A DNA stretch of 63,961 nt, filler included, from Dugesia japonica (taxonomy: Eukaryota), in NCBI GenBank assembly GCA_001938525.1. It is 6 parts of 6 records of this genome, joined end to end, with 100 filler letters (N's around TTAATTAATTAA, not from the genome) between each part and the next. Parts side by side here need not be neighbours in the genome. Positions count along the whole stretch, not along the records: positions 1 to 10,695 come from MQRL01629975.1; 5 more parts are not named here. One strand, written 5' to 3'. Positions 2,038 to 8,229 of this stretch are shown here, piece after piece; the stretch's first letter is position 1, and each line of letters starts with the position of its first letter. A program made the translations under genes and the position numbers. A model generated the notes under the pieces. That model saw only the letters and a program-made list of their open reading frames with translations, did no database searches and was not told the origin of the DNA.

Positions 2038-3510
2038 NNNNNNNNNNNNNTTTGATTTTAGTTTCTTAGTTACTGGTTCTGACACAATTTATATATAAAT
2101 CAAATTAGCATAATAAAATTACTAATGTACATTATCAATGTCACTAAAGAGGTTTGGGTTTTTTTTTAATTTTTACCCTTTTTTAAGAAAAACAAAACTA
2201 GGGCAAAAAAACCAAAAAGTGAAAAAAAGTAAAAAAAAACAGAGCATAAAAAATAAAAGAAACTAAACACAACTATTGAAAAAAATATAACAACTATAAC
2301 TCAAACAAAAAATTAAAACTTAAATTTAAATATAGAAACTTCAACATAATAAAAATGAAACTGTATTACAATAAATAAAAACAATGTTTAAAAAAAAATT
2401 TGATAATAAGCATATTAAAAAGACCATAGATTAACAATTAAATAAGACAAAGTTTTATTTTTAGTATTCAATTAACTACTCTTTTATTCGGAGAGAAAGA
2501 TGTAATTCAACAAGTATTAGGTTGTCACATATGAAATGTCTGATTTTAGAACTCGTTTTTTAAACTAATATATTTTTATGTAATATTTAACATTTAGAAC
2601 TTATTTATATATCATTTTGAAGGTGGAATTTTTGATTATCATTATATAATATTTGTTTTAAAAATCTATTTATTTAATTTATTTTTAGACAGCATGGAAC
2701 ACAAGCTAAAAAATACAGAAATGCGAACATTATTTTTATATGAATGGAAATTAAAGCATAACCCAAAAATGGGTTATTCATCACAATAGTAGACGTTCTG
2801 CTATATAGTTAGATGCCGATCAATCTCCTTTACACGGTCCTAAACCGAATTTACATCCGAAAAAGACAATGCTGACAGTTTGGTGATCTATAGCTGGAGT
2901 CATAGATTTTTCTTTGTTAGAAGAAGGTCAAACTATTAACTCAGACAAATACTGTTCTGAAATTGAATTAATGCAGAAAAAATTATGCATTAAACAGCCT
3001 TCATTGGTCAATAGGAAAGGAATCATCCTCTTGCAGGATAATGCCCGACCACATGTGGCAAAGAAGACGTCGCAAAAGTTGACAGACTTAAAAATTGAAA
3101 CTTTGCCACATCCACCATATTTGCCCGACTTATATTCGACAGATTATCATTTTTTAGGAATTTTGATAATTTTTTGGTTAAAAAAATCATTGCTGATCGG
3201 GAGGATGTCCAAATTCATAGACTCCAAAGAAAAAGATTTTTTTGCTAATGGTATTGTTGGGGTCCCACCTGAGTTGAGTGAAAGAGTTTGTGGCTGGGGA
3301 AAAACAGCCCTCAGGGAAACCCGTTCAAGAATTTAACATACCGCCCCTAGGGCAGGTTTTCAGTTCATGGCGGTTGACCTCTCTCTTAATTGGAGGTACA
3401 CATCCATAAACCTTTGTATTCGGGTTCAATCTTTTCCCTAATAACTTCAGTAAAAGAAAGAAAGTACAACATCAATTATATACATTTTATTTGATAAACA
3501 AAGAAAATAT

Positions 3511-3893
3511 TCATAACAAATCCAGCACCCCTGGGTCTAACCATTGGGTCGGATCGTTCACCGAGAAATTAAAAGCAGCGATATCATCGTTGTCGTCCCA
3601 CTGAATCCAAGTGGGATTGCCTATTTGACGAGAAAGATCGGCGATGNATTGCTTTAAAAAATCGATCTTTCTCATCAGCAACTGCTTGTTTTCGGCTTCC
3701 AGTGCCTTAGTTTGGATTACTAAATCGTTGTGTTTTTTAACAATGAAGTCTAGTTTCTTTATAGGTTTGTCCCTCTGGGCGAGATGTTTCAGAAGGGCCC
3801 TGTCCGCCTTACGCTTTAAATGCCTTTAGACAAGAAGTCGTCGCATGATACGGTGGCATCTTTGGATGCTGTTGGGAAAATTTATTCGTGGCA
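3511..3893 (-). pseudogene. LTR cassette ORF D (~127 codons, one in-frame TAA; not in the ORF track)
   Basis: CATTTAG|TG then PRINFPNSIQRCHRIMRRLLV*RHLKRKADRALLKHL...RKIDFLKQXIADLSRQIGNPTWIQWD...PGVLDLL*. Homolog at 46504-46847. AATAAA at 3486-3491 on the minus strand. Confidence 0.65.
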
Positions 3894-4027
3894 CTAAATG
3901 ATTAAACGTTAATGAGAGGACATAATTATTTAAGTATATTCGCATTATGACCAAATTAAAGTATAGTAATCAAGAAAGAAAGTAAAATTTTTTATAGACA
4001 AAACTTTTTATTAAATAAAATTATTAT

Positions 4028-4395
4028 CTAGCCAGGGGATCCCGATTTGGTTTGGATACTTTTATTAATCCTGAGTGGTTCTAGGTATGACTTGTCTTTA
4101 AGTGACAAAACGTCGGCGACCAGTTTATTTTCATTGTCCTGGCCGGACCGGATGAGCTCGGCAATTGATTCTACCTGTTTCTTCCACACACGTTCTTGCG
4201 AGTGTGAGGCCTTGGCTTCTTTTCTAAACTCTATACATTTTCTCTTATAACGTTTCACTTTAGCTTCGGCCGCTGCGGTTTCCGCTTCCCATCGCCTTTT
4301 AGCGAGGCGGTATAGATCCCATGTGAGTTCCATGTTCTCACTATCTTCTCGTAATTTTTTAGTCGGGGCCTGGGATCTATTCAATGACGAATGCA
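4028..4395 (-). CDS. LTR cassette ORF C (coiled-coil-like, ~122 aa, probable spliced terminal exon)
   Basis: Begins at the acceptor TATTTCAG|TG. The segment APTKK...TWDLYRLAKRRWE is shared with 47165-47374. AATAAA follows the stop. Confidence 0.65.
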
Positions 4396-5009: not shown

Positions 5010-5142
5010 TTCTAAGAATAAAATGAAGGTAATAAAATTCAAACACGATATTAAACGTTAGAAATTATTCGTATGATTAAATAAATGAAACACAAAGTTG
5101 GTCATAGATTTTATCGTAGGTTCGTCACTAAAACAAAAGTCA

Positions 5143-5322
5143 TTATTCGTCTAAATCTACCCCTAACTCCGAGACAAACATCTCCGCCAGACATTGAAGG
5201 TCTGTTTCATCAGGGTGTTCAATCCTTCCTTTGGTCAGCAAGTGGGCTATTGATTGTTTTGACCGGCTATTTCGTCGTTGCTTTTGTATCCAACGCAAGG
5301 TACGATATAACTCAGTTGGCAT
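5143..5322 (-). CDS. LTR cassette ORF A (59 aa, IEHPDETDLQ motif), unknown function
   Basis: MPTELYRTLRW...IEHPDETDLQCLAEMF. Intact homologs at 47961-48143 and 55815-55994. Acceptor-like TTTTTGTTTAG lies 1 nt before the ATG. Confidence 0.7.
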   Translation of the reverse strand: MPTELYRTLRWIQKQRRNSRSKQSIAHLLTKGRIEHPDETDLQCLAEMFVSELGVDLDE

Positions 5323-8229
5323 GCTAAACAAAAATGAAATCATTATTTACTATAACTTAGTCCCCCCAAGACAAATCATGGTCATAGACAATTATTTAAA
5401 TGGGAGGGTTGTAACAGTATCACCGTGATAATTAGTGATATACCCTGAATTTTAATCATAAACCGCTATTAAGAAGTTATAAAAGGTCCTAATTGGTTAC
5501 ATATATATTGCGATAATAATGTACCACTGGAATCAATTAGCGAGGAAACACTACCATGTGCATGACAACATCAGCAATGACGGTGCTAACAAAAGTCCTA
5601 AATGGTAATTACTCGTAAAATATGACCACTCCCAGTGGTTTCCAATAGTGAGACATATTTTAGATTAAATAACTAGTAATACAAGTTAATTGGAGTTAAT
5701 TTATGAATTTTTATTTTAATCGCTATAATAATTTTTTTTTAATAACAACAGTGATATTGAGGGGTAATAAGAGTAAATTCTTTAATTTTCGTGGAAGTCC
5801 TAATCTGGTTAACTTGCTATTTTTATATTTTAGTTTATTTTAAAAATCGGCGTGAGACCGTTGCTTAGAGATAACATTGGTGATGGTGTCGATTCTCTCT
5901 AGGTCATGGTGTGCATGTACAGTAGGAGTGAATTGCTTGTGTGTATCATTATATGACTCAGTCGCCAATTCTCTGTCATACTTATCAGATTTTTGATTTT
6001 GTTATTTTTGTAATTCTACTGGAAATTTAAGCATAATGGCACTGTCTCCGAGGGAAGAAAATAATCAACTTCACCGATACTTGTTTCACAATATTATTTG
6101 GCAGAAATCAAGAGAATGCCTGTGGCAAATTTTTAAGCGAATGGATTATTGCAGAACAGTTTACCCTTTTGGTATCAGCAGATTTTATGAATGAATCTCT
6201 TAGTTTTATCATCATTTATTTCTGAAGTGAGTCAAATTCTACCCATTTTCATTAAATAAAGATTAGAAAATTTATCTTTCTGTTTAATTGTAGTACTATA
6301 TGATGGAACGGATTTCCGATGTCCATTTTGACAGGTTATCATATATTTTAATAACGGTTTTAATAAAGGAAATATTTTATTCACGACGAAGGGATTTATG
6401 TCATTCTCATTTTAGCCAAACTATCGCCCTTATCTATTATAACTCTTATCGTAAATGATGAAACAATTAAGCATTTAGATTCGGATCAATGTATTTAAAG
6501 TTTTAACCATACAACATTTAACATAATACAAGGAAAAAATATACTTTACTTTTTATTATTGACTTGAGGGATTTCTGCAACGAGTTTCACAACGGCTGAC
6601 AAATTTTTGAATATAATACGTTTGAGAGTATCGGATTTGTAATTAATATTCCGTTCTGATTATAAGGTAGTTTTCTAGTTGGTTTTCCGTAATTCTACAA
6701 TAATTCTCGTTTATTATTTGGTAATAAATTTAGATGTTCGTACCAGTAAATAATTGTCCAAATTGAACGTATAGTGTCTAAGCTTAGTTATTAAGAAAAA
6801 TGATTTTTTTGTAATTAAATCAACCAAAATCAGAGTCTCTTTTATACGGATTCCCAATACAACCCGGCATCGTTGTCATTGAGTGGTTATTTTTAATTCG
6901 AATTCTCAAGTTTTTATTGGCGTTGGTGCTACGATTCCAGAATTTTTAGAGTTTTAGAGCTCTGATTGGTAAGTATTTTTAGAGGGCTATGTGATGGTTC
7001 TTTCTTTGTGTTATTTTTATTTTTAGGCCTCCTATTGGTTCAATCTTGTGGACCCTGCAGCAGCCTTCTGGACGATGGTAAGTTTTCCTTCTTGATAAAG
7101 CTTAATGCCCTTGTTGTTCTCTTCTTGAATTTTCTTAACCGGATTCCCTCCGACTTTCTTGACCAGAGTTATTCGCATAAAACAGATTTTGTCTCAATTT
7201 TAATTAATTTTTTCCGTTTAAATTAATTGTTATTTTTTGGTATTTATTTCTTCTTTTGATATTTATTTTCATTAATAATTCTATTAATTTTGTGATTATT
7301 ATAATTAATCACATTGAATTTGATCTTCTGAGTTTCCCATTTAATACTATTGTCGGGATTTTTCACACTTGCTTTTTTTTACCATGTTCCTTAATTTGAT
7401 ATTGGCAATTCATGACCCCCTTCAACCTTGATTTTCATTCATCTGGGTGTTTCGCCCCAACAGTATGTTGAAACTAGTTTCTAGATGACAAAAAGGTGTA
7501 GAATCCGATGGTGACTATTTTACTTAAATAAAATTTGATTTTATTGGACTTTTATTGATTTTATTGTCTATTACGTAATCGGTCATTTCATATGTGACAA
7601 CCTAATATTTATAGAATTTTGATGTTATTAATTTTGCTACATTTTCCTACATCAAAACATCCCATCCTCATAATAAAAATATATTTACTTATCATTTGAA
7701 ATCGCAAATAGTATACAGATAAAACTAACCAAACATAAAATTATATTCATTAATAAAATTTACTTTTGTTGACAGGATAACAGTAAAATAAATGCGAATA
7801 AATTAATTTCGTTTACAACAACAAAAAACTAAAGAAAGTAATACATAAACAATATTTGGTTTTTTGACAATATATGAAACAGCAAAATAGCAAAAACACA
7901 AAAATCAAACCGAACCGACAAAATAAAATAAAACTTTTATGTATGTCAGGTATAAAAAGCCGGGGATTGAAAAAATTATGAAGTTTTAACTATTATATTA
8001 TACAAGTTTATTCTCAGGCACCGTGGTGTTCGTAATTTTTTGAATTTATTTTTAATTTTCAATCTGAAAATGAAAATATTTTGCAAAAATTTTAAATTTT
8101 AATTTAAAAAAGTGTAATAGTAAAACTTAATGTTCATACAATGAAGCATTAGTATTTATTTGATTAATTATTTCGGTATACACAACATTGTGAGGAGTAA
8201 ATTATTTTGAATCATTTAGTAAAGATTTT

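Follow-up and report, generated by a model that had tools for sequence, protein, structure and literature searches.

A solo long terminal repeat (LTR) of 4208 bp in the planarian Dugesia japonica is probably of the Burro type and carries four genes, ORFs A-D, that were under selection and were likely expressed by means of alternative splice acceptors and alternative poly(A) sites. The LTR was thus likely a multi-gene expression unit and more than a mere promoter. Gene annotation masks solo LTRs, and LTRs in general are treated as non-coding control regions in which a single overlapping gene is the exception. Positions given here count along the window, the whole stretch of 63,961 nucleotides that was analysed (Table 1).

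Results

The LTR and its insertion site

The 4208-bp unit lies within a decayed mariner, the DDE piece of which (2887-3252) matches PF01359 in Pfam (E 3.6e-7). Its termini are TGTTGGGG at 3255 and CCCCAACA at 7462. In empty-site reads, which stem from further copies of the mariner, 3255 is followed directly by 7468, so that 4212 bases (4208 + 4) are missing. Such support came from 17 reads with 11 starts in dataset X11, from one read in X14 and from one contig in X3, with none in X10. Thus, the unit, its ends and the GTAT duplication, all proposed in a preliminary description of this DNA, are borne out by sequence and reads. The mariner frame had been thought to be split exactly, which agrees with the empty-site reads, but it is itself decayed, with a stop right of the insertion and an indel at 3149 relative to the reads.

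The 3' end of the unit (3255-3380) is 77-78% identical to 56375-56249, the end of a second LTR (local score 130.5, versus a shuffle maximum of 30). Behind this second LTR we found a stretch resembling a primer binding site (PBS; 56383-56400), putatively of the tRNA-Pro type; the window contains no tRNA gene. A decayed polyprotein region follows, and within 57941-63961 we presumptively assigned gag-, ubiquitin- and BCL2-like parts by eye. Pfam and PDB searches with these parts gave no match, and no CCHC knuckle was recognised behind the gag-like part. On the strand of the gag-like part, and about 5 kb downstream of it, lies the match to a mononegavirus-type fusion env; a PDB sequence search with the env and BH2-like pieces returned nothing relevant. 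The window ends before PR, RT and IN of this PBS-linked element.

Given the PBS-adjacent homologue, the gag-like part and env downstream of it, the 4-bp duplication and an inverted end of just 8 bp, and since neither a transposase nor a viral hallmark ORF was seen in the six frames of the unit, we regard the unit as very probably an LTR. This supports its earlier identification as such, including the homology of its terminus to the LTR end at 56375 before PBS and gag (the latter gag-like by eye). Paired LTRs around one internal region were not seen within the window. The source element of the solo LTR is likely a Burro-type, env-bearing giant gypsy element.

Table 1. Features of the window; remarks give the basis or state of each feature.
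Feature	Position	Strand	Remarks
Decayed mariner, recipient of the 4208-bp unit	2512..7610	+	TIRs near 2512 and 7610
Target-site duplication GTAT	left 3251..3254 (+), right 7463-7466		sequence and empty-site reads
Solo LTR, 4208 bp	3255..7462	-	5' end 7462, 3' end 3255; inverted termini 8 bp
Conserved LTR 3' end	3255..3380	-	homologous to 56249-56375 and 46257-46380
ORF D exon	3511..3893	-	begins TG after acceptor-like site, phase 1; AATAAA 3491
ORF C exon	4028..4395	-	begins TG after acceptor-like site, phase 1; 121 open codons; AATAAA 4012
ORF B	4653..5009	-	118 codons, codon 15 an in-frame stop; ATG 2 nt behind an acceptor-like site; AATAAA 4631
ORF A	5143..5322	-	intact, 59 aa; ATG 1 nt behind an acceptor-like site
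Candidate TATA box	6840..6846	-	616 nt from LTR 5' end; TATA-like, inferred
Short solo LTR	44659..46175	+	similar termini; AATT duplication; TATA 45478; without A-D
Copy 2 of long LTR	46257..51539	-	interrupted by nested short LTR; about 4.15 kb without insert (estimate)
Copy 2 ORFs	A 48143-47961, B 47841-47514, C about 47382-47004, D about 46847-46507	-
Short solo LTR nested in copy 2	49972..51250	+	ATCC/ATAC duplication; TATA 50591; without A-D
Visible 3' part of 5' LTR, full-type element	55696..56375	+	680 nt; remainder behind assembly gap 55596-55695
PBS-like stretch	56383..56400	+	starts 7 nt past LTR end
Decayed polyprotein region	57941..63961	+	runs off window
Gag-like part	58325-58978	+	by eye
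Ubiquitin-like part	about 60861-61394	+	by eye
Env fusion glycoprotein start, mononegavirus-type	63537-63959	+	PF24664, E 3.9e-9
BCL2 BH2-like part	about 63540-63600	+	by eye

Four ORFs and their codon pattern

The preliminary description had placed four ORFs on the sense strand of the unit. Genes, order and strand hold, but positions 4395 (C) and 3893 (D) are not start codons: the lengths of C and D are not multiples of 3, and both start with TG right after an acceptor-like YAG. ORF B is the best conserved of the four, and C and D are coiled-coil-like sequences. In the unit, the frame of D is interrupted by a stop (codon 22) and contains an N (codon 82). The structure model of ORF A (pLDDT 76) consists of two helices, with a predicted helix-loop-helix shape and a basic first helix. 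Its best structural match was MYC-MAX (Z 5.7, rmsd 2.2, 52 aligned), which is under the chance range for two-helix models, and a Pfam HLH match was not obtained. The model of ORF B reached a pLDDT of 46.8.

Against Pfam and PHROGs, ORFs A-D gave weak matches only, below the cut-off. In a search of 1.84 billion proteins, the 94-aa stand-alone protein P0004 proved to be a distant homologue of B, the alignment starting at the initial Met of both (E 7e-9). The other four of the five matches to B (P0001-3 and P0005) were to repeat proteins of fish and Enterovibrio and were rejected, their scores being the sum of several weak matches. An atlas search gave no usable match to P0004 or to the env piece, from which neither absence nor novelty follows. 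Homologue searches in a limited length range retained none of 13 candidates for C, none of 2 for the ORF A alignment and none of 304 for the Ets host gene. Pattern scans confirmed 0 of 323 matches for C and 0 of 230 for B in metagenomes, and 0 of 110 for B in viral contigs. The LTR-end pattern hit one locus among the viral contigs, a chance match in a phage contig with 50% GC. A fifth conserved ORF upstream of A was not found when the unit was compared with copy 2.

Comparison of ORFs A-D between the unit and copy 2 (368 pooled codon pairs) gave a pN of 0.23 and a pS of 0.74 (Fisher p 6e-50). Changes were distributed over the three codon positions as 112/83/210, placing 210 of 405 at the third position (excess p 1e-14), whereas such a position bias was absent in 8/8 non-coding controls (p 0.08-0.43). 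B, C, D and A (the latter between the unit and copy 3) reached p<0.01 each; A between the unit and copy 2 alone gave p 0.058. With a pN/pS of 0.31, the suggested past purifying selection on the four ORFs is supported, and dN/dS between the two copies was about 0.08 (dS near saturation), not about 1. The spacers, previously described as not aligning, do align: 60-72% of their ungapped columns are identical versus 60-69% for the ORFs, but with more gaps. Spacer identity is as high as ORF identity because the spacers are 74-81% AT. The real contrast between ORFs and spacers is the codon pattern, not identity, and the ORFs were almost certainly once coding. Family-wide, contigs of at least 85% identity reached depths of 8561 and 4081 on C versus 699 and 729 on the adjoining spacer bins.

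Splice-acceptor and poly(A) signals

An acceptor-like site lies 0-3 nt before the ORF start in 8 of the 9 ORF copies (background 1.2%), a count of which 4/9 is circular, since acceptors served to define where C and D start, and in which copies are not independent; where the start is set independently by an ATG, the rule holds in 5/5. As background, the same rule is satisfied by 63 of 5204 spacer positions and, among 775 ATGs in an AT-rich context, by 9. Three of the four strict sense-strand acceptor-like sites in the unit are at ORF starts. AATAAA occurs about 10-30 nt past the stop in 7 of the 9 ORF copies (background windows: 594/4994), and ORF A is without it in 2 of 3 copies. The acceptors of C and D are in phase 1 in 4/4 cases, with exons beginning TG in 3/4. 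Over the 15 codons that precede its first shared ATG, ORF D shows 6 changes, all synonymous. Since only synonymous changes occur upstream of this ATG, the start of D is likely provided by an upstream exon. A donor or leader exon conserved between the unit and copy 2 was not found upstream of A. As far as sequence signals can tell, those at the gene borders quite probably point to alternative splicing and polyadenylation. The preliminary description had noted neither this putative splice and poly(A) layout, which is new here, nor the resemblance to Burro elements.

Other copies and RNA

In copy 2, ORFs A-D recur in the same order and on the same strand (48143-46500), as had been described. C of this copy has stops at codons 72 and 94, B and D are frameshifted, and its 5' terminus and duplication were searched for and not found. 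The middle parts of the unit (5323-6939) and of copy 2 (48147-49876) do not align; the most conserved LTR part across copies is the last 126-290 nt. A third, intact copy of A (55815-55994), overlooked in the preliminary description, lies 380 nt before the PBS-linked LTR end, with no B, C or D in between (visible 680 nt). Both short LTRs have a TATA in common, at +819 and +619, and a TATA-like site is found at +616 of the unit. Gene number per LTR varies (0, 1 or 4), and the four-gene form is known here without linkage to gag or env, the PBS-linked LTR being visible for only 680 nt. On balance, we consider the cassette an optional, subfamily-specific module that decays after selection on the element stops.

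Mapping of three RNA runs (6-25% of each read set, at least 85% identity) yielded a mean depth of 0-1.7 on the LTR interior; in X11, the flanking mariner reached 80-170. Spliced or polyadenylated reads on the LTR were not seen in these fractions of the three runs. The RNA mapping that had been proposed as a check on the unit was thus near nil, and this copy is nearly silent. The expectation that each solo LTR still delivers four genes is not supported: both long copies are partly broken, the visible part of the PBS-linked LTR has only A, the two short LTRs have none of the four, and RNA is near nil.

Discussion

Coding sequence inside or overlapping an LTR and reached by splicing is known from MMTV sag and lentiviral nef. 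These are one gene each, in U3, with an LTR under 1.5 kb, whereas the gypsy-type LTR studied here is 4.2 kb long and has four tandem genes, most of which come with an acceptor-like site and a hexamer of their own. Burro polyproteins have the order gag, Ubi/SUMO, BCL2 and mononegavirus-like env (PMC6431247). The element described here resembles Burro/GYPSM1 in its long LTRs, high copy number, decayed copies and AT-rich host among the dugesiid planarians (PMC6431247), in the mononegavirus-type fusion env after a gag-like part and possibly in the order of the gag-, ubiquitin- and BCL2-like stretches, which were assigned by eye; Burro criteria also include CCHC knuckles behind an N-terminal retrotrans_gag, a gypsy-type PR-dUTPase-RT-RH-IN and a total length >30 kb, the last two of which lie beyond the window. 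The layout of the element and a GC content of about 28% fit a dugesiid host. The element differs in that the accessory ORFs of the review text are within the polyprotein or upstream of it, with no mention of LTR genes, acceptors or poly(A) sites (PMC6431247). Ogre LTRs measure 1.9-6.5 kb and plant elements have conserved extra ORFs, which, in the excerpts of both sources, are in the internal region between the LTRs, unlike those of the unit (PMC6431247; PMC7264820). Foamy-like fish ERVs are similar in that several accessory ORFs enlarge an endogenous element, but they are Retroviridae with accessory genes in a conventional retrovirus-like structure and no solo-LTR cassette (PMC6431247). We found no paper on a multi-gene cassette in a Burro or gypsy LTR; Grohme 2018, its extended data and Repbase may show the ORFs.

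We propose that transcription would begin at a promoter towards the 5' end of the LTR, where 6846 is a candidate TATA, and that the RNA would open with a short leader exon; we see about an even chance that such a promoter lies inside the LTR upstream of A. Splicing would join this leader to the acceptor of one of the four genes, and the hexamer that follows the gene would set the 3' end of the RNA. A and B would be translated from their own ATG, 1-3 nt past the acceptor, while the first base of the first codon of C and D would be supplied by the upstream exon. The products may be accessory regulators, A a small protein of basic helix-loop-helix shape and C and D coiled coils; a regulatory role, drawn by analogy with complex retroviruses, is a tentative suggestion. 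Solo copies would be left by recombination between two LTRs.

Could the LTR be non-coding, its ORFs being frames that stayed open by chance where GC is higher? They are short, several are broken, family matches are absent and there is almost no RNA, but the third-position excess (p 1e-14) and the pN/pS of 0.31, neither of which appears in the 8 controls, and the distant B homologue P0004 with the same start make this extremely improbable; barring faulty alignments, the codon tests refute it. It is also very improbable that the unit is a non-autonomous TG..CA DNA element (Ginger/TDD-like) or a DNA virus fragment captured between LTR-like ends. Short inverted ends and a 4-bp duplication would be expected of integrase-type DNA elements too, the window shows no paired copies and the ORFs have no known family. 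However, Ginger/TDD-type DNA transposons have long TIRs, an integrase-like transposase and no PBS link, a pattern from which the unit departs: its inverted ends are 8 bp, its six frames are free of transposase or viral hallmark ORFs, homologues of both ORF A and its 3' end directly precede a PBS and a polyprotein with gag and env, and no relative was detected in viral contigs.

Two further readings accept genes in an LTR and differ in how these are expressed. If they were in U3 and expressed only from the 3' LTR, by splicing from the 5' leader of the element as in MMTV sag and HIV nef, solo LTRs would be mute. The near-zero RNA on the solo copy and two long copies without a conserved donor or promoter upstream of A would fit, and the last 126-290 nt, the most conserved part, could contain a compact R-U5. 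Yet the last 236 nt of the unit are without AATAAA, so that an R downstream of D would have no canonical signal, genomic RNA would have to ignore the poly(A) sites that follow B and C, and the TATA of the short relatives lies 620-820 nt from the 5' end; we consider this unlikely. Still less likely is an operon, with a polycistronic RNA cut at the poly(A) sites and a host spliced leader (SL) added at each acceptor. Excerpts of PMC12582326 report SL trans-splicing in planarians and flatworm SLs that end in ATG, and the gaps from gene to next acceptor, about 100-240 nt, are within the 300-bp cut-off for flatworm operon candidates. But the SL ATG would be in frame in just 2 of 9 ORF copies (worked by hand) and in none of C or D, and the conservation of D extends to codons ahead of its first shared ATG.

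The significance of the LTR cassette is tempered by the kind of element being known and the unit copy being a decayed fossil; planarian piRNA work, in the excerpts of PMC8532177, already follows BURRO1. It is rather doubtful that the LTR is a portable mini-genome of promoter, shared leader and up to four genes, with modules gained and lost among subfamilies, many solo LTRs of which would spread expressible regulators independently of gag-pol-env. If our preferred reading is true, the length of the LTR would be explained by four genes kept by selection, together with the splice and poly(A) signals that belong to them, and a hidden set of small proteins would be added to a high-copy element.

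The long LTR and its element

The 4,208-bp unit starts with TGTTGGGG at 3255, ends with CCCCAACA at 7462 and is flanked on either side by GTAT. The host sequence of the insertion is a mariner, whose TIRs lie near 2512 and 7610. In reads of other mariner copies, 3255 is joined to 7468, a skip of 4,212 bases (4,208 plus 4) that was found in 17 reads with 11 starts in sequencing run X11, one read in X14, one contig in X3 and none in X10. Since these empty-site reads skip 4,212 bases, both ends and the GTAT duplication are fixed, as the preliminary description had placed them. Its exact split of a mariner frame holds for the junction; the mariner itself is decayed. 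The window has two decayed copies of this mariner family (2512-7610 and 39023-39899), and each of the three RNA runs contains plenty of reads from relatives.

Because no internal direct repeat was found in the unit, we regard it as one LTR-like piece and reject the reading as a small element with two LTRs. Its final 126 nt (minus-strand reading) are 77-78% identical to 56249-56375, with a local score of 130.5 versus a maximum of 30 among 60 shuffles, which bears out the proposed homology to the LTR end at 56375. A PBS-like stretch, presumably of tRNA-Pro type, lies 7 nt beyond that end; no tRNA gene was found within the window. Downstream, on the same strand, lies a decayed polyprotein region, whose last piece (63537-63959) matches PF24664 (Monjiviricetes_fusion, E 3.9e-9). 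Upstream of this env piece, gag-like, ubiquitin-like and BCL2 BH2-like stretches were recognized by eye only and gave no Pfam or PDB match. According to the review PMC6431247, planarian Burro elements have such a domain order, their mononegavirus-like env lying behind gag and ahead of pol; the order gag-like, ubiquitin-like, BCL2-like, env, the first three by eye, would be that of Burro. On sequence grounds, the unit is an LTR and the element behind the PBS-like stretch appears to be Burro-type, its host probably a dugesiid planarian.

Features of the window
Feature	Position	Strand	Remarks
Unit (long solo LTR)	3255-7462	-	
ORF A	5143-5322	-	
ORF B	4653-5009	-	
ORF C	4028-4395	-	
ORF D	3511-3893	-	
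Copy 2 of long LTR	46257 to at least 51539	-	A-D, order as in unit
PBS-linked LTR, visible part	55696-56375	+	Intact ORF A (copy 3) at 55815-55994
Short solo LTR	44659-46175	+	AATT duplication; termini resemble unit's; none of A-D
Short solo LTR nested in copy 2	49972-51250	+	ATCC/ATAC duplication; similar termini; none of A-D
Open frame ending in Ets domain	12595-13437	+	PF00178, E 2e-9
DEAH-box helicase gene, four open pieces	17618-20798	-	
15-16-bp tandem array between two helicase pieces	18923-19567		
Protein kinase, one 315-codon frame	40546-41493	-	E 1.5e-31
Ulp1-like protease piece, weak	24648-25193	-	E 0.003
RT-RNase H fragment, another gypsy-type element	9085-9621	-	
Second short relic noted with RT-RNase H fragment	29336-29438		
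AT-rich satellite-like arrays	10279-10695, 38515-39050, 33888-34464		Units about 42-64, 26, 47 bp

The window (GC about 28%) carries an Ets domain and is animal DNA; no homolog of the Ets frame was found in the length range searched. The 100-base gaps (10696-10795, 20935-21034, 30592-30691, 39844-39943 and 55596-55695), with a six-frame stop filler at their centre, give rise to false repeats, and one conceals most of the PBS-linked LTR.

A variable cassette

The claimed recurrence of A-D, in order, at a second locus was confirmed in copy 2. This copy is split by the nested short LTR, past which its alignment to the unit continues, weakly, in register; without the insert it would measure an estimated 4.15 kb, and its 5' end was not found. 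In the PBS-linked LTR, 380 nt separate A from the LTR end, without B, C or D, and a gap hides the remainder. The short LTRs gave no significant alignment with the unit beyond the termini. With four genes in the unit, four in copy 2, one in the visible part of the PBS-linked LTR and none in either short LTR, the cassette behaves as a variable module. The short LTRs (1.3-1.5 kb) form a second solo-LTR family, with a further copy starting at 30519 (+) that is cut off by a gap; the two at 44659-46175 and 49972-51250 share a candidate TATA (+819 and +619, respectively).

Each long copy carries broken genes as well as open ones. In the unit, stops interrupt B (codon 15) and D (codon 22, with an N at codon 82), and A and C are open; in copy 2, A remains open, C is interrupted by stops at codons 72 and 94, and B and D are frameshifted. 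The idea that each solo LTR delivers four genes is thus not supported by either the short or the long copies.

Run X3, of a kind not on record, gives summed contig depth, not copy number: 6000-74000 at the two unit ends, 8561 and 4081 on C, 2359-4287 on D, 920-1412 on B, about 250 on A, 699 and 729 in bins with the spacers beside C, 22-126 in the middle (5355-6770) and 2-3.5 on the unique flank. The long LTR thus belongs to a large family, in which the ORFs and ends have been retained better than the middle, rare among the family's contigs. The middles are unrelated between copies (unit 5355-6770, copy 2 48147-49876); a hydrophobic open stretch in copy 2 (48456-48677, -), with acceptor-like sites close by, is not conserved in the unit.

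Coding selection and flanking signals

Comparison of unit and copy 2 over 368 codon pairs, A-D pooled, gave pS 0.74 and pN 0.23 (Fisher p 6e-50); dN/dS was about 0.08, dS being close to saturation. Changes at codon positions 1/2/3 were 112/83/210 (p 1e-14). B, C and D were individually significant (p 8e-7, 2e-4 and 2e-6), and A gave 0.007 against copy 3 and 0.058 against copy 2. Eight controls from non-coding sequence, namely spacers, LTR ends and the pair of short LTRs, gave p 0.08-0.43, even with the best position picked, and the antisense frame with shared third positions showed the same pattern as a weaker shadow, as expected. The suspected purifying selection is thereby supported, and the codon pattern indicates that A-D were genes. 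The spacers, said not to align, differ little in raw identity of ungapped columns (60-72% versus 60-69% in ORFs, no separation).

Acceptor-like and AATAAA signals are absent from the preliminary description. A fixed acceptor rule, which asks for a YAG behind a run rich in T within 0-3 nt of where the ORF begins, was satisfied in 8 of 9 ORF copies versus 63 of 5,204 spacer positions, the exception being unit D, with YAG present and one T too few; four of the nine counts are circular, since the starts of C and D were placed at the acceptor. For A and B, with starts set by ATG, the figures are 5/5 versus 9/775 ATGs in AT-rich context. AATAAA follows the stop by about 10-30 nt in seven of the nine copies (background 594/4994 windows), with only GATAAA behind A in unit and copy 2. 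All four C and D copies begin in phase 1, and three of the four with TG. The 15 codons ahead of the first shared ATG of D (3 identical, 6 synonymous-only, 6 changed) make it likely that D took its start from an exon further upstream.

Predicted proteins

The model of A, from 3 sequences, has two helices (pLDDT 76). Most of its top structure matches are bHLH chains; since the best Z of 5.7 lies in the range that two-helix models reach by chance, this likeness is a lead only. C and D gave only weak matches under the cut-off, several to coiled-coil families, and the B model (pLDDT 46.8) is unusable. Among five matches to B, the only credible outside homolog is P0004 (94 aa, E 7e-9), which is encoded on an ENA contig of 512 nt, aligned from the same first Met and 45% identical to copy 2 B over 47 aa; the other four are repeat artefacts.

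Expression and implications

Most likely, we infer, A-D were expressed from an LTR promoter through alternative acceptors and hexamers. A promoter in the 5' part, with a candidate TATA at 6846, 616 nt in, would start an RNA whose leader exon would splice onto one of four acceptors and which would end at the hexamer behind the chosen gene, so that one LTR would yield four small mRNAs; no conserved donor was found between unit and copy 2. Alternatively, A-D could be U3 genes reached only from the full element's leader, or, less probably, an operon resolved by spliced-leader (SL) trans-splicing. The gene spacing of 100-240 nt fits the flatworm cut-off of 300 bp for operon candidates in PMC12582326, but the terminal ATG of the SL would share the reading frame of just two of the nine ORF copies, as worked by hand.

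RNA was sampled at ≥85% identity in three runs, each from a different study and covered to 6-25%, a setting that misses more diverged active subfamilies. Mean depth inside the LTR was 0-1.7 versus 80-170 on the mariner (X11, both directions summed), five X14 reads lay partly on B with loose ends, and no splice joint was found in the sampled reads; present activity is unsupported.

Single LTR genes (sag, nef), long LTRs (Ogre) and Burro elements are already known. We found no multi-gene cassette inside such an LTR in the literature searched; Grohme 2018, its supplements, the figure in PMC6431247 and Repbase may show these ORFs. The proposed four-mRNA scheme resembles the accessory-gene logic of complex retroviruses, and we propose, with low confidence, that the products were accessory proteins regulating either the expression of the element itself or host defence. 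In the boldest reading, which we consider doubtful, the LTR may be a portable, modular multi-gene unit.
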